A stretch of 64,000 bases of DNA from an uncultured Oxalobacteraceae bacterium (GCA_903893945.1 CAITOF010000042.1:80425-144424), one strand, 5' to 3'. Numbered from the stretch's first letter, positions 10,103 to 57,949 are shown. Notes: generated by a model not told the origin, from the letters alone. Numbers and translations are program-made.

Positions 10103-10344
10103 CAATAAACCGGAATCGCATGCCATGCTGAACTGATTTTGATCAACAGTTGTAATTTTAATCACTATCAGGCACGCTTTGCCACACAGTGCAGGTGGCC
10201 ATCCGCTTACCCGGGCACGACAGTCGCCTGCGCGCGTTGCCGATACAGGGTGTGTCGCCTGAAAATACTGCCGGCTGATGGTGCAAGGTAAATTAACGGA
10301 TATAATTTACCCACAACTTAACCCGAGACCCTCCAGACCCGACG

Positions 10345-38640: not shown

Positions 38641-38659
38641 CAGGGTGACCGTGCAACGC

Positions 38660-39622: not shown

Positions 39623-39630
39623 CAGGTCGG

Positions 39631-40575: not shown

Positions 40576-40656
40576 AGTGTCTTCCCCGTGTCCCGTGTTA
40601 TCAGGTTCAGTACGTTGTCTGTGGTGCGTCACCGCATCCGGTGCGCGCGCCAGACC

Positions 40657-41904
40657 CTAAATGATGCCGTCTGCGCGCAGCTCGTCAATCTCTTCCCTGC
40701 TGTAGCCAAGCTGCATCATCACCTCGTCGGTGTGCTCACCCAGCAGCGGAGAGCGCGTCACTTCGGTTTTACTGTCAGACATTTTGATCGGGTTGCCGAC
40801 CGTCAGATATTTGCCGCGCACCGGGTGGTCGATTTCAACGATCGTGCCGGTTTCACGCAGCGACGGCTCCTCGGCAATTTCCTTCATCGACAGAATCGGG
40901 CCGCACGGAATATCATACTGGTTCAGAATCTCCATCACCTCAAATTTGTCCTTGGTCTTGGTCCATTGTTCGATGCGCGCGAAAATCGGCTTGAGGTGCA
41001 GCAGACGCGCTCCGGGCGTTGCGTAAGCAGCGTCGTCGATCCAGCTCTCTTCGCCAATCACCTTGCAGACCGCCGGCCAGACCGCGGCCTGTGTGATGAA
41101 ATAAATATAGGCGTTCGGGTCGGTTTCCCAGCCTTTGCATTTTAAAATCGAACCGGGCTGACCACCACCGGATGCATTGCCGGCACGCGGTACAGCATTG
41201 CCAAAATGTTCGTCCGGATACTGGGGATATTCCTTCATCACGCCGGTGCGCTCCAGACGTTGCTGGTCACGCAGCTTGACCCGGCACAGATTGAGGACAC
41301 TGTCCTGCATGGCGGCCAGGACCTTCTGTCCACGTCCGGTGCTGTTGCGCTGGTAAAGTGCGGCAACGATGCCGAGCGCCAGATGCAAGCCGGTACCACT
41401 GTCGCCAATCTGCGCGCCGGTGACCATGGGCGGACCATCAGGGAAGCCGGTCGTAGACGCAGATCCGCCCGCACATTGCGCGACATTTTCATACACCTTG
41501 CATAGCTCATACGGGCCCGGACCAAAACCTTTCACCGAGGCGACAATCATGCGTGGATTGAGTTCCTGTATCCGTTCCCAGGTGAAACCCATCCGGTCCA
41601 GCGCGCCAGGGGCAAAGTTTTCCACCATGACGTCACACGTCTTGATCAGCTTTTCCAGTACCGCCTTGCCTTTCGGCTTCTTGGTGTCCAGCGTGACAGA
41701 ACGCTTGTTATGATTAAGCATCGTGAAATACAGGCTGTCTGCATGCGGAATGTCACGCAATTGCGCCCGCGTGGCATCGCCATCCCCTGATTTTTCAACC
41801 TTAATCACATCCGCCCCGAACCACGCAAGCAACTGAGTACAGGTCGGCCCTGACTGGACATGCGTAAAATCCAGAATGCGAACGCCATCTAATGCCTTGC
41901 TCAT
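40657..41904 (-). CDS. frc: Formyl-CoA transferase (copy 1, class III CoA-transferase)
   Basis: [26 protein letters not shown], catalytic Asp in [15 protein letters not shown] loop. Confidence 0.92.
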
Positions 41905-42067
41905 GCACTTCTCCTGAGAATGAATTCACTGTGTTGTATCTGTATTGCCGTACAGTTTATATCATGATGGCGCGCAGTGACACGCCTTGACCGTTCCAGC
42001 CTGAACGACCGATAGCGCCAGCCGCACGCCGTTTGCTTACATCATAGGGTGGGCCACGACCGCTGCG

Positions 42068-42093
42068 CATTGACCATGGATAATTTTCATTGC
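42068..42093. promoter_or_regulatory. Oxalate-cluster shared motif, site 1 (upstream of frc copy 1)
   Basis: CATTGACCATGGATAATTTTCATTGC; 23/26 identical to 48358-48383. Confidence 0.65.
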
Positions 42094-42212
42094 CGCGTCA
42101 CCAATTTGTTGCCCCGCACCAAACCGCTATCAACCACACCGGATAGCAGAGCAAACAGTCATCCTTGGCCACCGCGCTGGCAGGCACAGGTTCTGTTGTT
42201 TTTTGTAAAAAA

Positions 42213-42226
42213 TTAACCTAGGTTAA
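42213..42226. promoter_or_regulatory. Oxalate-cluster shared motif, site 2 (upstream of porin)
   Basis: Perfect palindrome TTAACCTAGGTTAA. Confidence 0.6.
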
Positions 42227-42312
42227 CGCAGTTTGACCACTGATCTGAGCATGATGCACCGTGGTCACTAGATTCACCATGATTAAAATTAAAACCAAGC
42301 CAGGAGACACAA

Positions 42313-44052
42313 ATGAAGTTTACGTATAAACCTATAGTTGCTGCATTCGCAAGTATTTTCGCCGTCGGTGCTTTTTACTCAAGTGCGGCGTTGGCCGATA
42401 ACACGACAGATGACATCAACGCTCTCAAAGCGCAGATGAAAGCCCTCATGCAGAAAATTGACGACCTGTCAAAAAAACAGGAAGCCGCGGCACAGGCACC
42501 GGCCAATACCACCTCGGGGCCATTGGTTGAAAGAATGAGTGTACCGGATGGTTACAAGCCGGGCACAGTCAATATGCACACCGGACAGGCGAATCCGAAG
42601 GTGGTTGACAGCGGTAACTTTTTACACCGCGAACGCGACGACAGCCTGACCTTCAGTACCGGACAAAGCGGCGGCGGGGTTACCTTCTACGGTAACTTCA
42701 ACGTCTCCATCGATGATGCGGTCAACGGTATTGCCGGCGCACATAACGATGGTCAGCTCACCAACGGCGGGCTCGGCACCGGACCGTTTGGCAATACCGG
42801 TTGGATACCGGCCATTGCAACCAACAACACATATATAGGCTTGCGCGGCTTTCAACCGGTTGGCGGTTGGGATAATGCCCAGTTCCTGTGGCAATTGCAG
42901 ACCAATATCGCTTTGTCAGCATTGGCAGGTAGCGGAGAAACCAATTCAACCGTGTCCAACAGTGTCAACGGTGCGCTGACCACAGGTACCACCTATGTCG
43001 GATTCGGAAATGCTGGCTGGGGTTCGGTAAAAATCGGCAAAACCTATGCACCGTATGAGCTATCGACCCAGATTTTCAATCCGTTCCGCGGTATGCTGGG
43101 CAGCATGGGAACTGTTATGGGTAATACCGGCGGCGATAACCGGATCGAATTTGGCACACTGCTCGAGCATGCTTTATGGTATGAGTCGCCGAATTACGCC
43201 GGCTTGAGTTATTCGTTCCTGTTTGCACCTGGCCAGAACCTCGCCAACGATTCCAGTAGTTTGCCAAGGGGCGGTTCGAATTGCGCGGGCGGTGACACAC
43301 CGGGTAATGCCGGCAATGTCAATCTTGAAGGTCAGGTTGGCTGTAACGATGGTGGGTACAGCAACGCATTCAGTGCCAGTGTTGTTTATGACAATAAAAA
43401 AGACTGGTACGCAACGGCAGCCTACGAGACACATAGCAAGGTCAACCGTAGCAGCGATCTGGCGGGTGAAACAGCCTTACCAGCCGGTTATACCCATGCA
43501 CAACTGGACGCCCAGGATGTGGCTACCGAATGGGCTGGCAAAGTTGGCCTGATGTATAAAATCAGTTCGACTGGCACCAGCATCGGTGGTGTTTATGAAT
43601 GGTTGAGAAGAGATGTTCCGGACGATCTGCAGTATCAGAATGAGCGTTCTCGTACAGGGCACTGGTTACTTATCCAGCAGGATATAGCAGGCGGCAACCA
43701 GATCAATTTCGGTTGGGCGCATGCCGACAAGGCTAATGGCGATCCTGGTCAGCACAATGATTCAAGTATCGCAGGCTCACCTGGGCAACAACCTGACAAC
43801 TCGGCCAATATGTACAGTATCGCGTTCACGCACCAGGTTGACAGAAACCTTTCCTTCTATGCCAACTATGCCATTACAGAAAATGGCGCCGCAGCTCACT
43901 ATGATTTAGGTGCAGGTGGCCATGGTTATTATGTCGATTGCCATGATGCCGGCGGCCCGATTTCTGCCAGCGGTTTTATTGCATCCGGCCCCAACTGCTG
44001 GACAGGCACCAAGATTCAAGGTGTTACTGGAGGCATGCAATACCGTTTCTGA
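42313..44052 (+). CDS. Outer-membrane porin with N-terminal coiled coil
   Basis: Signal peptide, coiled coil DDINALKAQMKALMQKIDDLSKKQ, Gram-negative porin motifs (VTFYGNF, YIGLRG, WYESP, GWAHA, YANYA), C-terminal GMQYRF. Confidence 0.8.
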   Translation: MKFTYKPIVAAFASIFAVGAFYSSAALADNTTDDINALKAQMKALMQKIDDLSKKQEAAAQAPANTTSGPLVERMSVPDGYKPGTVNMHTGQANPKVVDSGNFLHRERDDSLTFSTGQSGGGVTFYGNFNVSIDDAVNGIAGAHNDGQLTNGGLGTGPFGNTGWIPAIATNNTYIGLRGFQPVGGWDNAQFLWQLQTNIALSALAGSGETNSTVSNSVNGALTTGTTYVGFGNAGWGSVKIGKTYAPYELSTQIFNPFRGMLGSMGTVMGNTGGDNRIEFGTLLEHALWYESPNYAGLSYSFLFAPGQNLANDSSSLPRGGSNCAGGDTPGNAGNVNLEGQVGCNDGGYSNAFSASVVYDNKKDWYATAAYETHSKVNRSSDLAGETALPAGYTHAQLDAQDVATEWAGKVGLMYKISSTGTSIGGVYEWLRRDVPDDLQYQNERSRTGHWLLIQQDIAGGNQINFGWAHADKANGDPGQHNDSSIAGSPGQQPDNSANMYSIAFTHQVDRNLSFYANYAITENGAAAHYDLGAGGHGYYVDCHDAGGPISASGFIASGPNCWTGTKIQGVTGGMQYRF

Positions 44053-44124
44053 CAGGACCAGCTGAAAGTGGAAAGTGCGCCGATCTGAAATTTGCACTGA
44101 ATCGGAACTGGCGCTCTCAGCCGC

Positions 44125-44158
44125 AAAAAAACCCGTCCTGACCAGGACGGGTTTTTTT
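44125..44158. terminator. Bidirectional intrinsic terminator
   Basis: A-run, CCCGTCCTG / CAGGACGGG stem, T-run; between convergent porin and binding-protein genes. Confidence 0.88.
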
Positions 44159-44240
44159 ATGGGCGGCAGCGGAAATACCAGGGAGGGTAGCCGTTTATGC
44201 CGCTGTCATCACGGGCCTCCGGCATTAATGTACGATCCGG

Positions 44241-45053
44241 TTACAGACCGAGACGGTTGGTCGCTTCATTCATCACGGCCGTATTCCACGGCACAAAACC
44301 GGTGATGTGCAGGCCGGCCAGCGCGGTTTTGCCTTCCTCCGAGTCGGACAGTTGCAGCAGCAATTTCTGTATTCTGGCGGTATCGTCCGAACTGAATCTG
44401 CGCGACACCAGAAACTGCTTGATCGGCACCGGTTTGGTCTCGGCAATAATGCGCCCCCCCTTGGCAACCCAGCTTTTCGCCACCGCAGCAGAGCCCGTCA
44501 CACCCGCATCCACATACCCGTAATCCAGCATGAACGGAACCGCATCCTGATAACGCGTTGGTGTAAATTGTTTGGCGGGATCGGCGACGCCGATTTCGCG
44601 CAAACTGGCCGAAAACATGCGCGTCACAATGGACTCCATGGAGGGCACACCAATTTTTTTACCGCGCAGATCGGCCAGTGAATTCAGCGGTGAATCGGCT
44701 TTGACCATCACGCGCGCACGATACTCGGTGTAGTCCCTGGCGGTTGCCAATCCCAGATATTTTCCGGATTTCGTTGCTGCCAGCCCTATGTGCGCCGGGT
44801 GGACAAACACCAGATCGATGCTCTCACTTGCCAATTCGCGATCGAAATCCGCATAGTGATTAATAACCTGCAACCTGATACTTCGTTTGAGTTCTTTGGA
44901 TAACAGGCTGATCAGCGGCTTAAAACGTTCACTGGCCAGACCGTCGTCCTGGTAGGTGACACCCTCATTGACAGCCAGCAGCAGATCTTGCGCCCACAGC
45001 GGGTATGACAAGAACAGCAGGATCGCAACACAGATTGTTTTTCGATAAAACAT
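44241..45053 (-). CDS. Phosphate/phosphonate-binding-like periplasmic protein (orphan)
   Basis: Signal peptide, FKPLISLLSKELK, IDLVFVHPAH, SPLNSLADLRGKKIG, VDAGVT. Confidence 0.75.
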   Translation of the reverse strand: MFYRKTICVAILLFLSYPLWAQDLLLAVNEGVTYQDDGLASERFKPLISLLSKELKRSIRLQVINHYADFDRELASESIDLVFVHPAHIGLAATKSGKYLGLATARDYTEYRARVMVKADSPLNSLADLRGKKIGVPSMESIVTRMFSASLREIGVADPAKQFTPTRYQDAVPFMLDYGYVDAGVTGSAAVAKSWVAKGGRIIAETKPVPIKQFLVSRRFSSDDTARIQKLLLQLSDSEEGKTALAGLHITGFVPWNTAVMNEATNRLGL

Positions 45054-45113
45054 GCCGGACCATTCTCAAATTAAAATGCGCAGGTTAAAGATAAACAGGC
45101 TGGGCAACATCAC

Positions 45114-45139
45114 CAAAACGGCACCCGATCGGGTGCCGT
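45114..45139 (-). terminator. Intrinsic terminator after frc copy 2
   Basis: ACGGCACCCG-AT-CGGGTGCCGT inverted repeat followed by TTTT on the minus strand. Confidence 0.75.
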
Positions 45140-45173
45140 CCAAAAACCACCGCGAGGGTCTGATACGCCGTGC

Positions 45174-46445
45174 CTAAACCGCTCCCGCCGTATGCAGCGC
45201 AGCGATCTGTTGCGCGCTGTACCCGAGGCTGGCCAGTACTTCGTCGGTATTTTCACCCAGCAATGGCGAACCGGTGATTTCAACCGTCATATCCGAAAAC
45301 TTGATCGGACTGCCGACCGTGAGATACTTGCCACGTGCTTTGTGATCCACTTCTGCAATGGTGCCGCTGGCCCGCAATGACGGATCATTGGCAAGTTCCT
45401 TCATGGTCAGAACCGGCGCGCAGGGAATGTCATATTTACGCAGCACATCCACCGCTTCAAACTTGGTTTTGTCTTTCAGCCAGTCTTCAATGATTTCAAA
45501 AATCTTGAAAATCTTGTCCTGACGTGCCGGTGCCGTGTTGTAGGCAGGATCATCGATCCATTCTTCCCTGCCCAGTGCCTTGCAGATCGGTGCCCAGGCA
45601 TGACCCTGAATCGTGAAATAGATATAGGCATTGGGATCAGTCTCCCAGCCTTTACACTTCAGCACCCAGCCTGGCTGACCGCCACCACCGGCATTACCGC
45701 CACGTGGCACGACATCAGAAAACTTGCCGTATTTGCCGTCTTCGCGTATCGGATATTGCGGATATTCTTCGAGGTAACCCAGGCGATCCAGACGCTGCTG
45801 GTCGCGCAGCTTGACGCGGCACAGATTGAGCACGCTGTCCTGCATGGATACCGCCACTTTTTGCCCTTTACCGGTTTTGTCGCGTCCAATCAGGGCGGTA
45901 AGAATACCGATTGCCAGATGCATGCCGGTGTTTGAGTCACCCAGCGCAGCCGCACTGATGGTCGGTGGACCGTCCCAGAAACCGGTGGTGGACGCCGCAC
46001 CGCCAGCGCATTGCGCCACGTTTTCATAGACTTTCAGATCTTCATAATGATGGCCGTCGCTGAAACCCTTTACCGACGCAACGATCATCTTGGGATTGAG
46101 TTCGTTAATCCGTTCCCAGGTAAATCCCATGCGGTCAAGCGCACCGGGACCAAAGTTTTCAACCATCACATCCGATTCGCGGATCAGTTTTTCCAGCACT
46201 TCTTTGCCTTCAGGCTTCTTGGTATCGAGTGTCAATGACCGTTTGTTGCTGTTCAACATGGTGAAATACAGCGCGTCAACATTGGGAATATCACGCAACT
46301 GACTGCGGGTCACATCGCCAGCTCCCGGACGTTCCACTTTAATGACGTCGGCGCCAAACCAGGCCAGTAACTGCGTACAGGCAGGTCCGGCCTGTACGTG
46401 CGTGAAGTCAATAATCTTAATTCCTGTCAGTGGTTTATTACTCAT
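45174..46445 (-). CDS. frc: Formyl-CoA transferase (copy 2)
   Basis: [29 protein letters not shown], catalytic Asp in [21 protein letters not shown] tetraglycine loop; directly downstream of oxc. Confidence 0.95.
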
Positions 46446-46532
46446 GATCCCTTATCTCCAATTCAATTGTTAAACTCAGTTTTTGAAACACCATTGTCTG
46501 CTCTGTCTTCGAAAATTACCATACATTCCGGA

Positions 46533-48242
46533 TTACTTTTTCGCTGCTGCACTTTGCGGGTTCAGGTTGGTCAGACGTCCGCTTTCGGTGCCGGCTGTCT
46601 CGTCGATGACGGCATTGATCAGTGCCGGCTTGCCGGCAGCAATCGCCTCGGTCAGCGCCTTGGTCAATTCTGCCGGTGTGGTCACGTTATAACCTATGCC
46701 ACCAAACGCTTCGATCATTTTGTCGTAACGCGCTCCTTTGACAAATACGGTCGGAGCCACATCTTTGCCACCGGTTGGATTGACATCCGTACCGCGGTAG
46801 ACACCATTATTGTTGAATATGATGGTCGTCACGGGCAGATGATAGCGACAGATCGTTTCGAGTTCCATGCCACTGAATCCGAACGCACTGTCGCCCTCGA
46901 TGGCCACCACCGGCAGGCCACTGGTCACCGCCGCACCAATCGCATAGCCCATACCGATACCCATGATACCCCATGTGCCGGAATCAAACCGCTTGCGCGG
47001 CTGGTACTGATCGATGATGCTGCGCGCGTAATCGAGCGTATTGGCGCCTTCGTTGACCAGATTGATGTCCGGATGGGCTTTGAGTACATCACGAATTGCA
47101 CGCAAGGCGCTGTGAAAATTCATCGGCGACGGATTCTGATCCAGCGTCACGGCCATCTTCGCCAGATTTTTATCCTTGCGCTCCCTGATCGCATCAGTCC
47201 ACTCGGCGCCAGGCTTGGCAAAACCCGTTTTGATGCCGGCCAGCAGCGCCGACACGCACGAGCCGATATCACCGATTACCGGTGCAGCAATGGCCACGTT
47301 ACTGTCAATCTCAGTCGGGGAGATGTCAACCTGGATGAACTGTTTCGGTCCACCCCAGGTTTTACCTTTACCATGGGAAAGCAGCCAGTTCAGCCGTGCA
47401 CCAATCAGCACCACCACATCCGCTTCGGCCAGCACAAACGAGCGTGCAGCCGATGCCGATTGCGGATGCGTATCCGGCAACAGACCTTTGGCCATTGACA
47501 TCGGCAGGTAGGGGATGCCGGACTGCTCGACAAACGCGCGAATATCGGCGTCGGCCTGGGCATACGCAGCCCCCTTACCAAGCAGTATCAGCGGGCGCTT
47601 GGCGCTTTTCAACAGGTCGAGCGCGCGCTGCACGGAATCAGGCGCAGGAATCTGGCGTGGCACCGGGTCCACCACGCGCACCAGTGATTTTTTGCCGTGC
47701 GCCGCGTCCAGTGTCTGACCGAGCAATTGTGCCGGCAGGTCCAGGTACACACCGCCGGGACGTCCGGAGACGGCGGCGCGAATGGCGCGCGCAATGCCGA
47801 TACCGATATCTTCGGCCTTGTTGACACGATAAGACGCCTTGGCATAGGGCTTGGCGGCGTTCAACTGATCCATTTCTTCGTAATCGCCCTGCTGCAGATC
47901 GACGATTTCGCGTTCACTGGATCCGCTGATCAGTATCATCGGAAAGCAGTTGGTTGTCGCGTTCGCGAGCGCCGTCAGGCCATTCAGAAAACCGGGGGCT
48001 GATACAGTCAGGCAAATCCCCGGCTTTTGTGTCATGTAGCCTGAAATGGCCGCCGCGTTACCGGCGTGCTGTTCATGACGGAAGCCGATAAATCGCATAC
48101 CTTCGGCCTGGGCCAACCGTGCCAGATCAGTAATCGGAATACCGACGAGCCCAAAGATTGTGTGTATATCGTTATGCTTTAACGCATCTATCACAAGATG
48201 AAATCCATCTGTAAGAGGTTGTGCCTGTGTCTCGTTTGTCAT
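46533..48242 (-). CDS. oxc: Oxalyl-CoA decarboxylase (ThDP-dependent)
   Basis: [23 protein letters not shown], ThDP motif [19 protein letters not shown]...[14 protein letters not shown]. Confidence 0.97.
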
Positions 48243-48357
48243 ATGAAGCTTCTCTTTGTTTTGGTTTCGATAAGGTTATGGCAACCCAGCCGCTAAAATG
48301 TCTCTGATGGGTCTATGTAGAGCCCTTCACATGTTAAAGACGCCGCTCCACATTAGT

Positions 48358-48383
48358 CATTGACCGTGGTTAATTTTTATTGC
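48358..48383. promoter_or_regulatory. Oxalate-cluster shared motif, site 3 (between oxc and the Crp/Fnr gene)
   Basis: CATTGACCGTGGTTAATTTTTATTGC; overlaps a plausible plus-strand promoter TTGACC-N17-CATGAT. Confidence 0.65.
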
Positions 48384-48433
48384 ATGATGGTAAAAACATT
48401 CACCATCCCATTTCCCTCTGGATTTCCCTTGTC

Positions 48434-49042
48434 ATGTCGTCTGTCGATCAACACCCGGAACGCAACGTAATTCGTGTCCAGCTCAAACAAAATGTCATAT
48501 TAGGTGGAATCAGTGATCAGGATATGGCTGAGCTTGAATCCGGTCTTACGCTGGTCGACTGTCATAAGGGCGACTACCTGCTGCACCAGGGGGTCCATGA
48601 AATGGAACAGTATTTCATCCTTGATGGCATACTGAAACGGGTGGTAACGAACCAGCAGGGCCATATGATGATATTGCGCTTTACCCATAGCCGCGATATC
48701 GAGACCAGTTACGCCGCCTGGCGACTGAAAACCCCGACACCGTACGGCATTCTGTGCGTCACCAACGCCCGGGTCGCCAAGATGCCAATGGCGCAGTGGG
48801 TCGCCTTTATTGAAAAACATGCATCACTCAAGGAATCGTTCGAATATGAGGTCATGCGGCTCATGAGCGAAATCATGGCCCATACCATTACCCTGAACCT
48901 GCTCGATGCGCCAGGCCGGGTACTGCGGTTCAGACGGAAACATACGGATCTCTTCAAGCTTATCCCGCAAAAGGAACTTGCTTCCTACCTGAATATCACG
49001 CCTGAAACATTGTCCAGATTGAAACGCCAGGGAAAGATCTAG
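48434..49042 (+). CDS. Crp/Fnr-family transcriptional regulator
   Basis: cNMP-binding-like LLHQG...YFILDGILK, HTH QKELASYLNITPETLSRLK; no Fnr N-terminal Cys cluster. Confidence 0.9.
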   Translation: MSSVDQHPERNVIRVQLKQNVILGGISDQDMAELESGLTLVDCHKGDYLLHQGVHEMEQYFILDGILKRVVTNQQGHMMILRFTHSRDIETSYAAWRLKTPTPYGILCVTNARVAKMPMAQWVAFIEKHASLKESFEYEVMRLMSEIMAHTITLNLLDAPGRVLRFRRKHTDLFKLIPQKELASYLNITPETLSRLKRQGKI

Positions 49043-49188
49043 CAGGCAGCGATCCGGAAACGGGCGCAACCCACCGTCTGCATCCTGCGCTGCCCTGCCG
49101 CGTGGACTCCCATTTGGCAAATCAGGTGATGTACTGATTATGCCCAAAGATATTCATGTTTTATATATCTGATATGTTTTATTTTGAA

Positions 49189-49217
49189 TTGACGCTCAAC
49201 AGGTCGACATTTATACT
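49189..49217 (+). promoter_or_regulatory. Sigma70 promoter of the 59-aa gene
   Basis: TTGACG (49189-49194), 17 bp, TATACT (49212-49217). Confidence 0.75.
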
Positions 49218-49258
49218 GCAATGCAATATGAATTTCTTACTAACCTGGAGTTTTTATC

Positions 49259-49438
49259 ATGTCAACTACATTAAAAGCCAATTCAGCTGATTTTCTGGGC
49301 AATCAATCCGCCGCACCGACTGTGGCCGTTACGCTGGCGACTGTTTTAGCCACACTGTTTGCTGTCAAGGCACGCGAGTCAATCGACCAGGCTACTTCGG
49401 GCGACAAATCAGACGCCGCCTGGATCTGGGGTCTGTAA
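49259..49438 (+). CDS. Small protein of unknown function (59 aa, below ORF-track cutoff)
   Basis: MSTTLKANSADFLGNQSAAPTVAVTLATVLATLFAVKARESIDQATSGDKSDAAWIWGL; GGAG RBS and near-consensus promoter upstream, hairpin downstream. Confidence 0.75.
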   Translation: MSTTLKANSADFLGNQSAAPTVAVTLATVLATLFAVKARESIDQATSGDKSDAAWIWGL

Positions 49439-49449
49439 TTCAGCCGTTT

Positions 49450-49487
49450 TAAAAACGCCATTGATCATCCTTGAATGGTCAATGGCG
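49450..49487. terminator. Terminator hairpin between the convergent small gene and panE-like gene
   Basis: GCCATTGATCAT-CCTTGA-ATGGTCAATGGC, with a T-run on the minus strand. Confidence 0.6.
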
Positions 49488-49529
49488 CATTGTTCACCTG
49501 CAGCATTTTCAACGTGTGGCGGGCTTGGA

Positions 49530-50540
49530 TCAGGCCATTTTCCGCATTTTCACGTGCCCTTCCTCTTCCATCATTGACTTCCCGAGCAACTTGACCAGCG
49601 CATAAACCGTGCTGATATGCGGTGTTGGCGTATGTGTCAAATGTCCCAATTCGACCACCGAGCCGACCAGCGCCTCAATCTCAACCGACCGCCCTGCTTC
49701 AACATCCTGCAGCATGGAGGTTTTGTGCTTACCCACTTTTTCAGCACCTTCAATGCGCTTTTCCAGCGGCACCCGAAACTCGATACCGAAGTGGGTCGCA
49801 ATGGCCTGGGCTTCGCGCATCATGTTTTTGGCCAGCTCCCGCGTCAGCGGATATTGACAAATATCGACCAGGGTCGAATGGGCCAGCGCACTGATCGGAT
49901 TAAACGTCAGGTTTCCCCATAATTTAAGCCAGATTTCGGAACGGATATTGTCCAGCACCGGCGCCTTGAATCCGGCCTGGGTAAAGCATTCGGAGACCCG
50001 GGTCACTCTGGCGCTGACAGAACCGTCCAGCTCACCGACCGGAAACCGGTTACCTTCGATGTGACGGACAACCCCCGGGGAAACCAGCTCCGAGGCCGGA
50101 TAGACCACGCAACCGATAACACGTTCAGGCGGAATTTTTTCCAGTATCGCCCCGGTCGGATCAACGCTGTGCACCCGATTCCCCTCAAACTTACCACCAT
50201 GCTTATGAAAATACCAATACGGGATTCCATTCTGCATGGTGACCACAACGGTCTCCGGGCCGAACAATTTCGGCACATCCTCGGCGACGGCCAGAACCTG
50301 ATTTGCCTTCAGGGCCAGAATCACCATATCCTGCGGACCCGCTTCCGCATAATCGTTGGTCGCGACCACTCCACGTGCGACCTGTTGCGTACCATCCTCC
50401 AGGATCAGCGTCATTCCATTTTTTCTAATCGCGTCAAGGTTCGCGCCCCTGACCATGAACGTCACCTGCTCCCCAGCCAGAGCCAATTTCACTCCCAGGT
50501 AACCTCCTATTGCACCCGCGCCAACAATTGCAATTTTCAT
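49530..50540 (-). CDS. panE: 2-dehydropantoate 2-reductase family protein (candidate oxalyl-CoA reductase)
   Basis: KIAIVGAGAIGG, LALKA, MQNGIP, WLKLWGNLTFNPISAL, KTSMLQDVEAGRSVE. Confidence 0.85.
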   Translation of the reverse strand: MKIAIVGAGAIGGYLGVKLALAGEQVTFMVRGANLDAIRKNGMTLILEDGTQQVARGVVATNDYAEAGPQDMVILALKANQVLAVAEDVPKLFGPETVVVTMQNGIPYWYFHKHGGKFEGNRVHSVDPTGAILEKIPPERVIGCVVYPASELVSPGVVRHIEGNRFPVGELDGSVSARVTRVSECFTQAGFKAPVLDNIRSEIWLKLWGNLTFNPISALAHSTLVDICQYPLTRELAKNMMREAQAIATHFGIEFRVPLEKRIEGAEKVGKHKTSMLQDVEAGRSVEIEALVGSVVELGHLTHTPTPHISTVYALVKLLGKSMMEEEGHVKMRKMA

Positions 50541-50562
50541 ATCCACACCCTTCAATACATAG

Positions 50563-51330
50563 CTAATCAAACCGGTTGCTGAGTTTGCCAATACCTGTAA
50601 TTTCGACGTCGACCGTGCTGCCCGGCTTCATCGAACCAACACCCACTGACGTACCACACAAAATGATATCGCCGGGGTTCAAACTCATATCCTGTGAAAC
50701 CAGGCTGACCAGGTGGGCAACCGAAAACAGCATGTCGCTGACTGGATATTCCTGTCTTACTGTGCCATTGAGCGTCGTTTTCACAACCAGTGTCGCAGGG
50801 TCAAGCCCGGTGGCGATTACCGGCCCGAACGGACAGAACGTATCAAATCCCTTGGCGCGCACCCATTGGGCAAACGACGGGTCACGATTCAGAATTTCAG
50901 CTGCCGTCACGTCGTTGGCGCAGGTATAACCGAACACATAGTCCATCGCCTTGTCGACAGGCACGGCTTTGCACGGCTTGCCGATGACTATGCCCAGCTC
51001 ACCCTCAAACACCACCTTGCCGGCGGCGAGCGGTTGCCGAATCACCTCGTCCGGGTTCAGATAGGAATTCGGCGCTTTAATCAGATACAGGGGTTCGGCA
51101 GGCACCGACAGATTCAGTTTCTTGCCCATCGCAGCAAAATTATTCCACATCGCCAGAATTTTACTCGGGGTGGTTGGCATCAGCAGCTTTACGTTGTGCA
51201 GATCAAACACCTGGTTCGAGAGCGTCGGATTGGTGAACATGTCGCCTTCATAGCCTTGAATGGTGTCACCTTCAAGCAGTCCAAAATGGACGGCATCTGC
51301 ATGTAAGAAGCGTACCCAGTGTTGTCCCAT
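50563..51330 (-). CDS. Fumarylacetoacetate hydrolase (FAH)-family protein
   Basis: PSKILAMWNN, FEGELGIVIGK, GYTCANDVTA, KGFDTFCPFGP, PGDIILCGT. Confidence 0.9.
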   Translation of the reverse strand: MGQHWVRFLHADAVHFGLLEGDTIQGYEGDMFTNPTLSNQVFDLHNVKLLMPTTPSKILAMWNNFAAMGKKLNLSVPAEPLYLIKAPNSYLNPDEVIRQPLAAGKVVFEGELGIVIGKPCKAVPVDKAMDYVFGYTCANDVTAAEILNRDPSFAQWVRAKGFDTFCPFGPVIATGLDPATLVVKTTLNGTVRQEYPVSDMLFSVAHLVSLVSQDMSLNPGDIILCGTSVGVGSMKPGSTVDVEITGIGKLSNRFD

Positions 51331-51573
51331 CTGATGACCTTTTCCCCAAATAAATAACGCTAGATTACGACAGCAGCATGCCGGCAAATGCAACAGCAGG
51401 CAAATGCGCGCGTCGATGCCGGCGCACTGTCAGACAACGGTGAAAGGAATTATCGCATCATGCCAATATCATGCGGTAGCGGCTCGCACCTGGAACTCAA
51501 AAACGAAGTTCCAGGTACGTCCTCTGGCATATTCAGCGTACTAACAAAGACGTTATGGTCTTTTCAGGATAAC

Positions 51574-52932
51574 TCAGCCAGCCCTGTGGGTATGCAGCTT
51601 GAGTTCGTCGATGGTCTTGGATTTTTGATCCGCGGCACTGCTGTCGGTACGACTTGTATTGACACTATCGATCAATTTCTTGCGCATCGGAGCCAGCACG
51701 AATTTGGCGGCGAACGCAGCTGCAATGGTGATTGCAGCGGACGCCATAAATACCCGATCCCAGTTACCCCCTGCAGACAGCACCGACGCCAGCGGCACGA
51801 GCAATGATGCAGTTCCTTTTGCCGTGTACAGTGTGCCCGCATTGGCGGCAGCGTATTTAACCCCGAACGTATCGGCACAGATGGCTGGGAAAATTGAAAA
51901 AATCTCACCCCAGAAAAGGAATATCAGCGCGGCGAATGTCATGAATGCCACCGGATCGTGACCAAACTGCATCAGACCCAGCATAGACAGTCCTTCACCG
52001 AGAAACACGACAAACATCGTATTCTCACGCCCAATCCGGTCAGAGATGAAACCGCACAGCGGCCGTGTGAAACCGTTGCACAGATTATCGATCGACAGCG
52101 TCATGGTCAGCAGTGGCAATGTGAGTCCGAACAGGGCAATCGGCATTTTTGCCAGCCCATAATCTTTGGCAATAGGACCGATCTGCGCTGTCGCCATCAA
52201 ACCGCCCGCGGCGACGGCAACAAACAGGATGTAGACCAACCAGAACAATGGGGTTTTGATCATTTTTCCTGTTGTATAGTCGACTTTGGTGGTCACCAGT
52301 CTCGGCGCAGGTCGTACGCCCTCCAGCGGTCTGGGTCGCACCATGAACATCGCCAGAATGAAGATGCATATGCCCTGCCCGATACCAAAAAACAGAAAGG
52401 CATGCTCATAGCCCGAACTCTGTATCATGTTTGCAATCGGAATCACGGTGACTGCCGCACCCGCCCCGAATCCTGCGGCAGTCAGTCCCGCCGCCAGACC
52501 GCGTTTGTCCGGAAACCATTTCAGGGCATTGCCCACACAGGTGCCGTACACACAACCGGCACCGATACCGGCCACCACCGCAGCAAGATAAAGCTCAGGC
52601 AGGGTCGTAGCAAATGAATCGATGATCCAGCCGGTGGCGGCAAACAGGGCACCGACAGCCACGACCGGGCGCGGGCCAAATTTATCCACCAGCCAGCCTT
52701 CAACCGGCACCAGCCAGGTCTCGACAAGAATAAAAATTGAAAATGACAGTTGTATAGCGGACAGACCCCAATGGTTTTTCGCTTCCATGGGACTTACGAA
52801 CAGGGTCCAGGCGTATTGAAGATTGGCTACCAATCCCATACAAATAATGCCGAATACAAGCTGAAGCCATCGATTTACTGGCTTTTCAGGACTACCAGGG
52901 CGAGCCCCGGTAACTTGGGTTTCTTGACTCAT
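51574..52932 (-). CDS. oxlT: Oxalate/formate antiporter (MFS, OFA family)
   Basis: NRWLQLVFGIICM...ANLQYAWTLF, ALKWFPDKRGLAAG, RPLCGFISDRIGRE, LYTAKG. Confidence 0.92.
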   Translation of the reverse strand: MSQETQVTGARPGSPEKPVNRWLQLVFGIICMGLVANLQYAWTLFVSPMEAKNHWGLSAIQLSFSIFILVETWLVPVEGWLVDKFGPRPVVAVGALFAATGWIIDSFATTLPELYLAAVVAGIGAGCVYGTCVGNALKWFPDKRGLAAGLTAAGFGAGAAVTVIPIANMIQSSGYEHAFLFFGIGQGICIFILAMFMVRPRPLEGVRPAPRLVTTKVDYTTGKMIKTPLFWLVYILFVAVAAGGLMATAQIGPIAKDYGLAKMPIALFGLTLPLLTMTLSIDNLCNGFTRPLCGFISDRIGRENTMFVVFLGEGLSMLGLMQFGHDPVAFMTFAALIFLFWGEIFSIFPAICADTFGVKYAAANAGTLYTAKGTASLLVPLASVLSAGGNWDRVFMASAAITIAAAFAAKFVLAPMRKKLIDSVNTSRTDSSAADQKSKTIDELKLHTHRAG

Positions 52933-53180
52933 GAAATTTATCTCCGGAATATTTTTATATGAACTTCATTACACACTTTTTGTGTGGTCTGCAGCGTACG
53001 GATCCTGATTCAATAATGCAATCAAGATACGACACAAGATCCGCTTCACCTGTACGATACAGTTCGTTCTGACCTTTGCTGTCACCGTTGTCTGGACGAT
53101 CGATAACAGCAACTGGCACAGCCCGACGTGTCCGGGAAATTGAATCTCAGTAAGAGAGTGACAGAACCGAACCGGATCGT

Positions 53181-53206
53181 CCTTGACTTCGGTTAAGATT
53201 TATTAT
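53181..53206. promoter_or_regulatory. Oxalate-cluster shared motif, site 4 (upstream of oxlT)
   Basis: CCTTGACTTCGGTTAAGATTTATTAT; 18/26 identical to site 3, same orientation relative to the minus-strand operon. Confidence 0.5.
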
Positions 53207-53261
53207 CTGTCCCGGATTACTCTTTACTCCGGGCAACAGGTCAATGTACGATCGTCGATCC

Positions 53262-53597
53262 TCAGAAGCCAACTTCGTGCCGCTGGATTTCAGCCCAGTC
53301 TATCGGTGCAGCGGCACGTGCGCCACGTGCAACAATTAACTCATAACAGCGGTTTTTTGCCGTGTGGATCATATCGGTCAAAAAATGAACATCATAGGCT
53401 TTGAGCAGGTGCGCCTGTTGGGTTTCCAGATAAGTCTGGATACTCGATTTCGCCCCGTCGTGGCTCTGAAGGTGCTGGTAAATCTCCTCATTCCAGTGCC
53501 ACTTCAGTCCCAGTTCACAAAAGGCCGCATTGTAGGCGTCCAAATGTATATCAATCGGGTTTTCTGCTGAAAGATCTTTGCTGGCTGCACTGCACAT
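53262..53597 (-). CDS. Small protein resembling the cap region of the HAD phosphatase CbbY, without the catalytic core
   Basis: HLDAYNAAFCELGLKWHWNEEIYQHL...IHTAKNRCYEL; GGGGAG RBS before the ATG; no DxD motif. Confidence 0.7.
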   Translation of the reverse strand: MCSAASKDLSAENPIDIHLDAYNAAFCELGLKWHWNEEIYQHLQSHDGAKSSIQTYLETQQAHLLKAYDVHFLTDMIHTAKNRCYELIVARGARAAAPIDWAEIQRHEVGF

Positions 53598-53897
53598 AAT
53601 GGCTCCCCTTCGCTGGTTAGTCTAGGCTTTCAGACACGTTTCGCTTCAATGCGAAACCTTGGGAAGCATCGTATTCTCAATGAATGATAAGTAATAGTTA
53701 AAGTTTTTAATAAAAATCATAACGTTTTGCTTATGATCTTCTTGAAATTTGAAGCGCGGCAGTACTGCCATACGCAGCCCGCGTCCTGTGCCGGCGCGGT
53801 AATTGTGCGAGTGCAGCAAATATTCTATCAAAACCTGCTGATAATACTGTATAAATTGAGTTATATTAATTGTGCGACTGCACAAAAGGAGGTCGGC

Positions 53898-54068
53898 ATG
53901 CCGTTATTACCTGAGTCACCCCAGGAACCATGGAACCATTATTTTCCACTTATCCCGTGCCATAAACCGTCTGCCCATCCCTTTGAAATCGAAGACTGTA
54001 TGGAATGGCAAATTCCTCGCGTCCCATTAAAGGACCTCCCGGTAGGCCTGATTTCGGATGAGATATGA
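53898..54068 (+). CDS. Putative 56-aa Pro-rich small protein
   Basis: AGGAGG at 53887-53892 before ATG 53898; MPLLPESPQEPWNHYFPLIPCHKPSAHPFEIEDCMEWQIPRVPLKDLPVGLISDEI. Confidence 0.45.
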   Translation: MPLLPESPQEPWNHYFPLIPCHKPSAHPFEIEDCMEWQIPRVPLKDLPVGLISDEI

Positions 54069-54171
54069 GTTTTTCCATACACTAGTTCAGAAAACGCCAA
54101 CCGGCTGGCGGATAAAACCTTGAACTGCCTGGATGAAGTTCATGCAGTTCAATGAACAACTGATAGTCAAT

Positions 54172-54310
54172 TCATGCGTTGACAGCCAATTTACGTAACA
54201 CTTTCGGGTATTCAGATGCCACGCGTAAGGGGGTGAGCGCCGCGCCAGACGGTTTCCGCCTGCCCTGCTCCCAATCTTGAAGCGTTCGCACTGTCGACAA
54301 TACGCCGACT
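54172..54310 (-). pseudogene. C-terminal remnant of an XRE-HTH (HigA/MqsA/YiaG-like) antitoxin
   Basis: Hand translation VGVLSTVRTLQDWEQGRRKPSGAALTPLRVASEYPKVLRKLAVNA*; an in-frame stop lies shortly upstream and there is no ATG. Confidence 0.7.
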
Positions 54311-54646
54311 ATCAAATGCTTCCTTTGCCAGACCAGGCATCCCTAATGATCGAATCAAAAAATGTTTATCTATCGCAGGACAAACATGTTTTTATAAGTA
54401 ATGTCTAAACGGTTCAGGAAGGATTGAAAACAGCCGGCAAGTTACGCGCGCCATGGCATTTGATAAACGTCTGCTGCATAACATGAAGTCTTGTTGAAAA
54501 GTATCCATTCTGATTTTACGTGAACGGCGCCAATGTACCTGTTAAAAGCCAGTTGGATTCCATTTGCATACGCTCGATGTTTGCCGTGACGATTCAATAC
54601 GACGTTGTACATAACTGTCATTCAACATCACATTTAGCAGAGGCAA

Positions 54647-56059
54647 TCATTGAGAGACAAGTACGTAGTTGGCTTCCACCCCACCGCTAACCTCTTTTAC
54701 AATGCTGCTAACCTTTGGCAAATAGTACAAGTCATATATACGTGAATGCCCTGTTGTGTGCTGACCCTCATTTAGGCCTGCTTGTCTCGAAGTCCAGTAA
54801 CCCTGCTCTTGTTCCACACAAAAAATCCTAAATGCAGGTTCCTTGGTGTCGGCGAAATCAATTTCCACTATGTCATCCACAACACAATAAATTTTTCTTG
54901 TACTACGGTCTTCTCTATTATTATTATGAGAATCACTATCAAAATTATACGATGTATTTTCTTCCCATATTCTGTGCAAGGAATAGTTGACCGCAACGGA
55001 ATTGCCAACTTTAATTGGGAATAATTCATTTGGATTGCCAGAAATTACATTAATCTCTATATTATCCGTCCCAATTGTATTTCCAATTAGGTGACCATTT
55101 ACTCCACTATTAGTTTTCGTCGTAGTTTTAGTTTCAATTGTACCTGGCCATGGAAGAATGCCATATTTCCCTTTGTAGGTTTTAGTTATATCCATTTTCG
55201 TGTGATTGTCGAACGGTCCATTTTCATATGTATATCTGCAAGTTTTCACTGCGGAGGAGAGTGTATTACGGTTGATAGTACAGACTTCCTTCTCCTTATT
55301 TTCAAGTGCCAAATGTAACGGCGGCGCAGAAAGTGCAATCGCCGGAATAGCAGCAGAAGGACGTTTGAGCGCAAGATTGCGGCGTAGTTGCATCAACCTA
55401 TCAACAGCTTGATCATAGTAGACAGAAAATGGAAATTTCTGGATAAATTGCTGTGTATCCGAGGGATCTTCAGACTGTCTAATAAGCTCCCATCGTGCTG
55501 CTTCAGGATCATCGTTGATTGATATTTTACCGTCGCGCTCTGCATCACTCAGTGTTTTGATTGCAGTGGTCAGTTTTTGTGCTTCATCCATCGTCTTATT
55601 GGCGAATGTCACAACTAGTGGGCATGTTGCATTTTTTTGATTAAATTCAAAGACTACTGCGCCATGTGCTGGGTCATTGATTCTCGGCCCAAATATATTT
55701 GTGTCAAGATTATTCATGTAATAAAAGTGTTCGCTAAAATCCTTGAAATGTACTCCTTTGGTTTTGTCAATTGATGCACAAATAGGATATGCTTTACTTG
55801 GTTCTCTCTGATCCGCGAATGGTATGATCGCCCAATCCACCGTGCCACCAAAACTACCTTGTTGCAAAGCGGCAGCATTCAGATATTGTTGGGCTTCTTC
55901 AATAGACATGACTAAGTTGGAAGGTGGAATTTCTTTTCTAGCAGCATGAATGTCACTAAGCCCGGTATTTCGATCCCAATCGACACTTGTTGTTCCACAA
56001 CCAGAAAGTAAAACCAACACGCAAATTGCGATAGTAAATCCATTTTTTCCTTTTTTCAT
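54647..56059 (-). CDS. Lipoprotein of unknown function
   Basis: Lipobox LSG-C after MKKGKNGFTIAICVLVL; ATG overlaps the caspase-gene TGA (ATGA); AT-rich. Confidence 0.8.
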   Translation of the reverse strand: MKKGKNGFTIAICVLVLLSGCGTTSVDWDRNTGLSDIHAARKEIPPSNLVMSIEEAQQYLNAAALQQGSFGGTVDWAIIPFADQREPSKAYPICASIDKTKGVHFKDFSEHFYYMNNLDTNIFGPRINDPAHGAVVFEFNQKNATCPLVVTFANKTMDEAQKLTTAIKTLSDAERDGKISINDDPEAARWELIRQSEDPSDTQQFIQKFPFSVYYDQAVDRLMQLRRNLALKRPSAAIPAIALSAPPLHLALENKEKEVCTINRNTLSSAVKTCRYTYENGPFDNHTKMDITKTYKGKYGILPWPGTIETKTTTKTNSGVNGHLIGNTIGTDNIEINVISGNPNELFPIKVGNSVAVNYSLHRIWEENTSYNFDSDSHNNNREDRSTRKIYCVVDDIVEIDFADTKEPAFRIFCVEQEQGYWTSRQAGLNEGQHTTGHSRIYDLYYLPKVSSIVKEVSGGVEANYVLVSQ

Positions 56060-57516
56060 TGGACACCTCCACTTGCCATAACAATATCACCAGTTTTAGG
56101 AAATCCCTCATCCAAGGCGTTTGCCCAAACCCTTTTCCCTGCTTTTACTATTACCCTGTATCTCAATGTCCTTCCATCCTTTTCTATATAAATAACGTCC
56201 TGGAGAAGGACCATGTGATCGGGTTCTGCTTCAAAAATAATCTGCTTGCCGTTAGAAATTATTTCAACAACTTTGCCCACAATAATTGACTGGTGTTCAA
56301 GCCCTTGAGCGAAGGTATTCGCCGTAGGTTTAACAGAAGCATCCAACTTAAATTTCTCGATTCGTGATTGTGCTAAAGCAGCAAAGCGCCCTGTTGGAAA
56401 ACGATTAAGAAAATCATTATAAGCTTCCAAAGATTGTGTTTTTTCCGCTAAGTCCCAAGCATTTTTTTCGGCTAACGCATCGTTCTGAGGCTTGTCGCTG
56501 GTAACTATGCCCAGCTTGCTTTTGGCCAGCTCGGCGTATTTTCCAGTTGGATATTGTTGCAAGTAGAGTTTATATCCTTCCGTTTTGCCCATATTATTGA
56601 TCGCTGTCCAGAAATTTCGTTCTTCATCATTAATTATTGTTGACGACGGTCCAGTGTTAGGGTCTACATTAGCAAGAGTAACGAAGGACGGACCCACACT
56701 AGCAATTTGTGGCGGCATTCCTGCTTGACCACCAGTAAAATAAAAATCACCATCAATGGGGGAACTTGCCAGCCACGGTTGCTGTGTACCACTAGTTGCT
56801 TTTTTTACCTTTACACCAACCTGATTAAATACATTGCGCACCTCCATGCCAGGTGTGTTGAGCGTTTCCGCCAATGCTAATGTATAAGGGCTGTCTGCCC
56901 CAGCACCATCCTGTGCCACATTGCCAGGTTGAGTTGCGTACGAAATTAAAGTGCCTTCTGGAGCCTGCATTTGTGCTAAGCCTCCACTAGTTGCTCGTAA
57001 TCCACGACCACCGAACGGATTATTACGACATGCATCGAGTACGACCAGATTCAATTTTGTTCCAGCGGCTTCCATTTGTTTTAACACAAGTTGCACATCC
57101 ACCATCTGAAAATCCAGATCTGTTTCATTTACCGGATTCGCATCCACCGGAACCAACCAGTTAGCACCACGCACTTGCAAACCATGACCAGCGTAATAAA
57201 AGAAGGCAACATCCGCACCAGCCAATTGTTTACCAAACGCATTTACAGCACGATCAAATCCGGGTTTGTTTAGGTCCAGTTGCGCACCTCCACCCACCAA
57301 TTCAAAACCCAAGTCTTTTAAAGTTTTGGCGATGAGGCGGGCATCATTTTTAGGATTTTCTAACGCGTGTATATTTTGATATTTGCTCATACCAACAACT
57401 AATGCAACACGCTTGCCGACTGTTTGGACAACATTAACAGCACGATCGGCTGGTTTGGCTGCGGGAGAATTAAGCAGTGCCAGTATGAATAGCGAACAGG
57501 TAAGATAGTTGAACAT
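56056..57516 (-). CDS. Exported caspase-family (peptidase C14) protein with helical repeats
   Basis: Signal-like N-terminus; KRVALVVGMSKY, LENPKNDA, His in FFYYAGHG, Cys in VVLDACRNNPF, ISYATQPG, SPYTLAL, QQPW; two W..Y..YL..YP.G..A.LA repeats. Confidence 0.9.
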   Translation of the reverse strand: MFNYLTCSLFILALLNSPAAKPADRAVNVVQTVGKRVALVVGMSKYQNIHALENPKNDARLIAKTLKDLGFELVGGGAQLDLNKPGFDRAVNAFGKQLAGADVAFFYYAGHGLQVRGANWLVPVDANPVNETDLDFQMVDVQLVLKQMEAAGTKLNLVVLDACRNNPFGGRGLRATSGGLAQMQAPEGTLISYATQPGNVAQDGAGADSPYTLALAETLNTPGMEVRNVFNQVGVKVKKATSGTQQPWLASSPIDGDFYFTGGQAGMPPQIASVGPSFVTLANVDPNTGPSSTIINDEERNFWTAINNMGKTEGYKLYLQQYPTGKYAELAKSKLGIVTSDKPQNDALAEKNAWDLAEKTQSLEAYNDFLNRFPTGRFAALAQSRIEKFKLDASVKPTANTFAQGLEHQSIIVGKVVEIISNGKQIIFEAEPDHMVLLQDVIYIEKDGRTLRYRVIVKAGKRVWANALDEGFPKTGDIVMASGGVQ

Positions 57517-57785
57517 GACTTGCTTCCAATTTATAAATCGGGATTTACGCTCAACTGTCAGGAACTTGCGGGGAGTACGCCGTCGCGTGAGCACGATTCC
57601 CTGCTCCTAACCATAGCATTACCGACACAGACGATCTGAAAACAATAATTTAAAAATTGAAAAATAGCAACTTCATTACTACTGTACGTGATCGACAAAT
57701 CACTAATTGCAAGCATACCGTTTCCACATTGCCTGAAATTTCCTGCACAACCGCTACACGTTGAAAGAATGTATTCAGCGAAAAC

Positions 57786-57819
57786 AAAAAAGGCTACAAG
57801 CATAAACTTGTAACCTTTT
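57786..57819 (-). terminator. Terminator downstream of tRNA-His
   Basis: Minus strand AAAAGGTTACAAG-TTTATG-CTTGTAGCCTTTTTT. Confidence 0.7.
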
Positions 57820-57838
57820 GATTATTCTACCGAATTCG

Positions 57839-57915
57839 TGGGGTGATCGATGGGGTTCGAACCCACGACAACAGGAATCACAATCCTGGACTCTACCAAC
57901 TGAGCTACGACCACC
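57839..57915 (-). tRNA. tRNA-His(GTG)
   Basis: Minus strand GGTGGTCGTAGCTCAGTTGGTAGAGTCCAGGATTGTGATTCCTGTTGTCGTGGGTTCGAACCCCATCGATCACCCCA; G-1, anticodon GTG, CCA. Confidence 0.97.
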
Positions 57916-57949
57916 ATTGATCTACTTCTGCCTGTGCTAAGGCAGGCCG

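Follow-up and report, generated by a model that had tools for sequence, protein, structure and literature searches.

A conserved small-protein gene with its own promoter module in the oxalate locus of Oxalobacteraceae

The DNA analyzed here, a stretch of 64,000 nucleotides from an uncultured Oxalobacteraceae bacterium (hereafter the window), carries an oxalate-catabolism locus. On the minus strand lie frc (40657–41904), a periplasmic binding protein gene (44241–45053), a second frc (45174–46445), and oxc (46533–48242), and a porin gene (42313–44052) is found on the plus strand. They are followed by a Crp/Fnr-family regulator gene (48437–49042, plus strand), whose product has a cNMP-binding domain and an HTH, and then by three genes of the minus strand: a PanE/ApbA-family reductase gene (49530–50540), an FAH-family protein gene (50563–51393), and the oxalate:formate antiporter gene oxlT (51574–52932; TIGR04259, 620 bits). 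An HDAC-family gene and a LysR gene are located farther upstream in the cluster. By its likeness to the PanE2 of Methylorubrum described in the literature, the PanE/ApbA-family protein is a candidate oxalyl-CoA reductase. A 111-aa ORF adjoining oxlT (window 53262–53597, minus strand; noted together with 38660–39622, minus strand) recurs with 44–53% identity beside a LysR gene in Collimonas and Massilia-group loci and is thus a further constant, unnamed member of the oxalate locus. The G+C content of the locus (window ~38600–53600) is 0.50–0.57, near that of its flanks, and it falls to 0.42–0.44 at 54001–58000, against ~0.55 elsewhere.

Between the regulator and the reductase genes, positions 49259–49438 of the plus strand form an ORF of 59 aa (protein MSTTLKANSADFLGNQSAAPTVAVTLATVLATLFAVKARESIDQATSGDKSDAAWIWGL), convergent with the panE-like gene. 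A ribosome-binding site, GGAG (49247–49250), lies 8 nt 5′ of its ATG. Upstream is a sigma-70-type promoter (49189–49217) composed of TTGACG (49189–49194), a 17-nt spacer, and TATACT (49212–49217), with 10 of 12 consensus matches. Judging from the promoter position, a transcript would start near 49224 and have a 5′ leader of about 35 nt. A 12-nt element, ATATCTGATATG (49165–49176, plus strand), which contains the palindrome ATATC-T-GATAT (49165–49175), would then lie at about −59 to −48. Finally, a 13-bp hairpin (49456–49487; −19.7 kcal/mol, z = −4.15) is present between the small gene and the panE-like gene. The ORF, ribosome-binding site, promoter, palindrome, and hairpin had all been pointed out in an earlier, sequence-only reading of this DNA, and each was found where that reading had put it.

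Taken in one sequence, the ORF, the promoter, and the palindrome are each no more than expected by chance: dozens of ORFs of this size occur within the window, promoter-like sites in the region number 3 against 2.5 expected, and the palindrome, with one mismatch allowed, has 2 matches against 1.2 expected. It is the comparison with other genomes, described below, that raises these features above chance. The hairpin had been taken as following the ORF, and so it does; its U-run (GCGUUUUUAAAAC), however, is on the minus strand. It therefore chiefly terminates transcription of the panE-like gene arriving from the other side and, at most, may act in both directions. Hairpins are also present 3′ of the small gene at other loci, some of them with the U-run on the strand of the small gene itself (L024, L028).

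A six-frame search of relatives revealed copies of the gene in other genera, each beside a panE-like gene. A pattern scan covering ~186,000 species genomes uncovered 16 loci; they belong to Collimonas, Herminiimonas, Duganella, Undibacterium, Massilia, Herbaspirillum, and other Oxalobacteraceae. A profile search of a large protein collection returned 317 stand-alone proteins of ~54–59 aa at E ≤ 0.1; among the matches listed, lengths were 45–89 aa, no Pfam domain was present, and the name, wherever one was given, was “hypothetical protein”. An exhaustive HMMER search of 1.84 billion cluster representatives yielded 74 clusters at 50% identity, made up of short stand-alone proteins of 34–89 aa, apart from a single spurious match of 979 aa.

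Across the 17 loci examined, every ORF has an ATG start, is preceded at 6–9 nt by AGGAG or GGAG, and ends at an identical residue. Pairwise differences over the last 28 codons are concentrated at the third codon position (1061/813/2005 for positions 1/2/3), and the median dN/dS is 0.23, with dS saturated (above 1). The invariant serine is encoded by TCA, TCG, TCT, TCC, and AGC, and the other reading frames are interrupted by stops in many loci. An antisense ORF at 49303–49461 was also considered and rejected: the only antisense frame in which the variable codon position would coincide is interrupted by stops in 6 of 17 loci, and the mostly open antisense frame would have codon position 1 as the most variable. 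Judged by these patterns, 49259–49438 is shown to be a genuine protein-coding gene of an undescribed small-protein family. The homologues retrieved by these searches, their position next to oxc, frc, or panE and also next to oxlT, and the coding-type excess of synonymous change thus speak for the coding gene that the sequence-only reading had proposed.

No match to the window protein or to 18 family members was found in Pfam, NCBIfam, or PHROGs. A profile search of PDB sequences gave no relative, the one match (E = 3.1) being meaningless, and Rfam gave nothing above the gathering score, its one hit, SNORD47, being spurious (E = 0.033; 24.9 bits where the threshold is 50). Homologues have nevertheless been deposited, including NKI69450.1/WP_167595161.1 of Collimonas pratensis, SAMN04515617_1392 and _1399 of Collimonas sp. 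OK242, and entries from Duganella aceris, Pseudoduganella aquatica, and Massilia. They share 35–75% identity, equal length, the C-terminal motif, and the neighborhood with the window protein, and they are named only “hypothetical protein”; none has been the subject of a study or assigned to a named family. The gene had earlier been called unannotated, which holds only under the 60-aa cut-off then applied, since orthologues are called in public records, always under that name. In the literature searched, no regulator or small protein of Oxalobacteraceae oxalate loci is described. What is new here is therefore the family, its link to the oxalate locus, and its promoter module, all undescribed in that literature, whereas the ORFs themselves were already known as hypothetical-protein deposits.

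The small gene is present in 23 of 201 genomes of Oxalobacteraceae, a family living in soil and water, representing 10 of 64 genera, and in none of ~290 genomes from other families of the order. Nearly all copies lie within oxalate clusters. An orthologue of the Crp-like regulator is encoded by 59 of the 201 genomes, including 22 of the 23 holders of the small gene compared with 37 of the 178 others, and it is the most constant neighbor of the small gene, which lies no more than 2 kb downstream of it on the same strand in ~17 of the 23 genomes. In the commonest layout, frc and oxc point leftward, the regulator and the small gene rightward, and panE, FAH, and oxlT leftward. In genomes with the regulator and without the small gene, the slot itself is absent. 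The small gene is thus shown to be an optional part of the oxalate-catabolism locus formed by frc, oxc, the Crp-like regulator, the panE-like reductase, the FAH-family protein, and OxlT. Conservation, coding pattern, and gene order agree in this respect with the view, taken from the window earlier, of a real small-protein gene with its own promoter inside the oxalate cluster. Within the genus of the window, the small gene was found in 0 of 6 genomes in family-level searches and in 0 of 7 in another search; the same six genomes also have neither the Crp-like regulator nor the HDAC orthologue, which indicates that the oxalate locus is accessory in this genus.

Other layouts are found as well. 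In Collimonas, oxlT (rightward) and the small gene (leftward) are adjacent and convergent, and the regulator is two exported-protein genes away from the small gene in C. pratensis as well as in one Collimonas MAG; in C. pratensis, these inserted genes (L039:9922–11359, minus strand) encode 221 and 274 aa with signal-peptide-like starts. In two Herbaspirillum-like loci (L031 and L034), the small gene is divergent from the formate dehydrogenase genes fdsG/fdsB and is itself followed by a zinc-type dehydrogenase gene, and in another locus (L032) it stands beside oxlT alone, again convergent; these three loci have no Crp-like gene nearby. One copy (L033) is located outside any oxalate context. Two copies each are carried by Collimonas sp. 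OK242 and a Herminiimonas MAG (L022/L025 and L023/L029), and one Massilia-group genome has a tandem pair (L043:9657–9821 and 10020–10187).

Irregularities were also seen. In Undibacterium arcticum KCTC 42986 (L027, 1005–9601), the regulator is separated from the small gene by an inserted IS3-type transposase pair, and the alignments of oxc, the panE-like gene, and oxlT are each split over two frames, reflecting either a decaying locus or indel errors of a polished long-read assembly. The gene at the oxc position of Collimonas (L038–L041, e.g., L038:10193–11809) shares only ~26% identity with the window Oxc, despite its published annotation as oxalyl-CoA decarboxylase, and may encode a different thiamine-diphosphate enzyme.

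Comparison of the upstream regions revealed a rigid module that 15 of 17 loci share. A sequence of the form ATATC-N1-2-RTATS ends 34–36 nt (mostly 35) before a −10 box, TATACT or TATAAT; a −35-like ATTGGA or ATTAGA (TTGACG in the window) starts ~10 nt past the element at fixed spacing, and the ATG follows 35–45 nt past the −10 box in orthologous loci. The window conforms to this arrangement, with 35 nt between its element (49165–49176) and its −10 box (49212–49217). Since the remaining intergenic DNA is unalignable, the module is a true phylogenetic footprint, and it takes in both the promoter and the palindrome noted earlier. In a scan of the whole genome to which the window belongs, the element-plus-promoter layout was found only at the small gene, plus one chance match. 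Both members of the tandem pair are preceded by the ATATC element, and the module is likewise doubled along with the gene in Collimonas sp. OK242. The gene and its promoter are thus shown to move and duplicate jointly as one module. The 12-nt element itself is a candidate operator or activator site.

A different motif, TTRAC-N4-GWTAA, is present in the promoter regions of frc/porin (42070–42083 and 42213–42226), oxc/regulator (48360–48373), and oxlT (53183–53196), in the forms TTGAC-CATG-GATAA, TTAAC-CTAG-GTTAA, TTGAC-CGTG-GTTAA, and TTGAC-TTCG-GTTAA; two of these sites have a longer block, ATTGACC.TGG.TAATTTT.ATTGC, in common. These sites look like FNR/Dnr-type sequences and would accordingly be putative operators of the Crp-like regulator. 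TTRAC-N4-GWTAA does not occur at the promoter of the small gene, nor does the palindrome occur at the other promoters of the oxalate locus. Because the motifs differ, the small gene cannot be assigned to that regulon by motif, and the ATATC element is probably read by a factor other than that of the TTGAC-N4-GTTAA sites.

The same promoter layout is also found in front of a different gene. Noviherbaspirillum encodes 68-aa proteins (e.g., KTQ42_22105) beside the same Crp-like regulator, with a Met-Thr-Thr-Ser-like start, and their promoter has ATATCAGATAAC, followed after 10 nt by ATTGGA, with the −10 box starting 35 nt past the element. In one such locus, the gene lies at L051:1310–1513 (minus strand), its promoter at ~1560–1612 (minus strand), and the protein reads MTTSALNFTETLP...ISPRQLAKVRAMANSI; its relatives form 28 clusters, all “hypothetical”. 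Unlike the acidic GDKSD family, this protein is basic, and its gene is convergent with the regulator. Homology between the two families was rejected, with a profile–profile probability of 0.2% and no detectable homology beyond the first few residues.

Conservation of the small protein is greatest at its C-terminus. With positions numbered backward from the last residue, 111 sequences share an invariant R(−21), G(−12), K(−10), S(−9), and G(−2); a second set, F, E, L, D, A, T, D, D, and A, is nearly so. The family consensus for this region is L-F-x-V-x-L-R-E-x-L-D-A-x-T-x-G-D-K-S-D-A-A-[YFW]-x-[YW]-G-[LM], in which the first aromatic position of the tail is Leu or Met in some members. The window protein ends in RESIDQATSGDKSDAAWIWGL and has the family tail, R-E-x-[LI]-D-x-x-T-x-G-D-K-S-D-A-A-W-x-W-G-L, at its very end. 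The N-terminal ~20 residues are variable and Ser/Thr-rich, an amphipathic or hydrophobic helix spans about residues 20–47, and the median pI of the family is 4.8. AlphaFold2 predicted a long helix at ~26–47 and a short C-terminal helix at 50–56, with low confidence (pLDDT 58 with 18 sequences and 62 with 111 sequences).

A membrane association of the protein had been suggested from the window copy, which turns out to have the most hydrophobic helix of the family, with a Kyte–Doolittle 19-residue maximum of 1.97. As a family trait, membrane association is not supported: the median maximum is 1.34, a value of at least 1.6 is reached by just 13 of 111 members, and 75 of 111 have one or more charged residues within the hydrophobic stretch. 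Such low values and charged helices across the family speak against a membrane-spanning segment as a common trait; an amphipathic docking helix fits better. A signal peptide (AVKA|RE in the window copy) was rejected because the Ala-x-Ala site is not conserved and varies across the family. An attenuator leader peptide, which calls for a controlled structural gene downstream in the same direction, was also discarded, as the ORF faces a convergent gene (panE-like, or oxlT in Collimonas) and the hairpin comes after it.

Published expression data may bear on a Collimonas orthologue. One complete Collimonas genome encodes a small protein identical to C. pratensis NKI69450.1, the gene of which adjoins oxlT (NKI69451.1). 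In a multi-omics study of C. pratensis PMB3(1), frc (NKI69445.1), oxc (NKI69446.1), and oxlT (NKI69451.1) were up-regulated (PMC12542777). The normalized counts in the BCP, BP, and BBP conditions were 614, 736, and ~260 for oxc (COLLI_v1_200055) and 639, 656, and ~165 for oxlT (COLLI_v1_200060) (PMC12542777, Table S1). In the matching layout, oxc and oxlT are separated by exactly four genes, of which the small gene is the one that adjoins oxlT; from gene order and numbering, COLLI_v1_200059 is therefore very probably NKI69450.1, an identity that derives from the numbering of genes and not from a sequence in the paper. COLLI_v1_200059 has read counts 10–25 times those of oxc from a gene a tenth as long, with the highest value in depleted medium without mineral, and its counts shift the same way as those of oxc and oxlT. 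If COLLI_v1_200059 is indeed the small gene, the orthologue is transcribed far above the enzymes and moves with them.

The best explanation for these features as a whole, offered tentatively and held at somewhat short of an even chance, is that a coding gene under a rigid promoter module produces a helical partner protein, which may tune the oxalate locus, most likely through its Crp-like regulator. The product would be acidic (pI ~4.8), mostly helical, and located in the cytoplasm or at the membrane surface. It may bind another protein, with the hydrophobic helix face and the invariant G-D-K-S-D-A-A-aromatic-x-aromatic-G-[LM] loop and tail as contact sites. The partner would be the Crp-like regulator encoded just upstream, a guess made from gene order alone; the regulator is ranked first because it is the most constant pairing, and OxlT second. 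Through this contact, the small protein would tune the expression of the oxalate genes, much as PipX modulates NtcA, and its own level would be set by a factor binding the ATATC element.

PipX is a small co-activator of the CRP-family regulator NtcA in cyanobacteria, has ~89 aa, and contains a Tudor-like domain. The likeness lies in a small stand-alone protein proposed, here from gene order, to work with a CRP/FNR-family regulator. The present protein, however, has ~55 aa, is predicted to be all-helical, and has no Pfam or NCBIfam match among the 18 members searched, so homology to PipX is not indicated. Several observations also stand against the regulator as partner. The 37 genomes that have the regulator and lack the small gene imply that the regulator can do without it; in Collimonas, the small gene abuts oxlT and lies two genes from the regulator; and the three loci without a nearby Crp-like gene (L031, L034, and L032) and the one without oxalate context (L033) offer no such pairing.

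The second-ranked partner leads to a different reading, in which a small membrane protein binds and modulates the antiporter OxlT, in the manner of AcrZ, MgtS, or SgrT. AcrZ–AcrB, MgtS–MgtA, KdpF, and SgrT–PtsG involve proteins of fewer than 60 aa with one helix, encoded in or near a transporter locus, and the present gene resembles them in standing beside oxlT in some genomes. Indeed, the gene adjoins oxlT convergently in Collimonas and in L032, the C. pratensis counts move in the direction of oxlT, and the 19-residue stretch of the window copy, with its Kyte–Doolittle mean of 1.97, could span a membrane. Those small proteins, however, are mostly true single-pass membrane proteins, whereas the family helix is not consistently hydrophobic (median 1.34, with 13 of 111 passing 1.6 and two thirds having Asp, Glu, Lys, or Arg in the stretch); the best conservation is in the polar, acidic, aromatic tail rather than in the helix; and no homology links the families. 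Moreover, the neighbors in the commonest layout are the regulator and the panE-like gene, not oxlT. An action on OxlT is thus considered unlikely.

The expression data raise another possibility, namely an abundant acidic protein with a protective or buffering role, for instance as a binder of divalent cations or as a shield when oxalate, formate, or acid causes stress. A stress-type promoter would drive its gene, and it would bind no one specific regulator. Read counts far above those of the enzymes, with their maximum in depleted medium without mineral, are more in line with an abundant structural or protective protein than with a partner working in step with a regulator. The pI of ~4.8 and the invariant acidic loop GDKSD are in keeping with this role, and so are the location of one copy beside DnaJ-like and ECF-sigma genes and the C that directly precedes TATACT in many copies, a feature that resembles RpoS-type −10 boxes. 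Yet the gene is tightly confined to oxalate loci, the protein has no known metal-binding motif and no family match, and the conserved hydrophobic face and aromatic tail have the look of a docking surface, all of which makes such a role rather improbable.

A third group of potential partners consists of the enzymes themselves, the small protein being a subunit or assembly factor of the panE-like reductase, Oxc, Frc, or formate dehydrogenase. The gene is convergent with the panE-like gene at most loci and adjoins fdsG and fdsB in L031 and L034. All these enzymes, however, are widespread without the small gene, which in no layout is co-directional with, or translationally coupled to, an enzyme gene and which retains its own promoter; such a role is decidedly improbable. 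The invariant Lys of GDKSD, placed in the predicted loop between the two helices, could also take up an acyl group from reactive oxalyl-CoA or formyl-CoA, with the HDAC-family deacylase of the locus removing it again; the protein would then be an acyl-lysine sensor or sink. An HDAC-family gene is indeed present in the cluster and adjoins the small gene in Collimonas sp. OK242, but its orthologue occurs in only 17 of the 23 holders and also in 33 genomes without the small gene, and most Collimonas genomes with the small gene have no such HDAC at the threshold used. This unspecific co-occurrence weakens the sensor reading, which is very improbable.

The protein might instead be the precursor to a modified or exported peptide, such as one whose C-terminal core is cross-linked, which would agree with the short size and the conserved C-terminal Lys and aromatic residues; this reading can hardly be credited, as no radical-SAM, cyclase, protease, or exporter gene is adjacent in the five layouts, where the neighbors are metabolic, transport, or regulatory genes, and as a signal-peptide-like cleavage site is not conserved within the family and the first aromatic residue is replaced by Leu or Met in some members. 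A chance ORF or an RNA functional in untranslated form has a negligible probability: ORFs of such size are common by chance in the window, but the third-position bias and dN/dS of 0.23, the conserved start, stop, and ribosome site, the survival of the amino-acid motif through synonymous changes and TCN/AGC Ser switches, the stop-broken other frames, and the want of an Rfam family all argue against it.

Returning to the preferred reading of a helical partner protein, a more far-reaching form of it can be outlined, although it is doubtful in its entirety. The small gene and its promoter may constitute a portable oxalotrophy module, in which an abundant ~55-aa protein docks by its GDKSD-aromatic tail on the Crp-like regulator (or OxlT) and sets the level of catabolism, while another factor reads ATATC-NN-RTATS. 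If this were true, the unrelated protein that Noviherbaspirillum carries on the same promoter would mean that the slot is a general one for small-protein control of the locus.

The practical stakes are modest, given the narrow taxonomy and a role that is possibly accessory. A recent review states that little work has been done on how bacterial oxalate genes are regulated (PMC13409138). The family described here is an example of a small protein that gene callers find and that has nonetheless gone unstudied. Conserved and apparently highly expressed, it is tied to the oxalate loci of Collimonas, Massilia, Duganella, Herminiimonas, and their relatives, and it offers two handles on the control of oxalate use in soil bacteria, the protein itself and the 12-nt element upstream of its gene.
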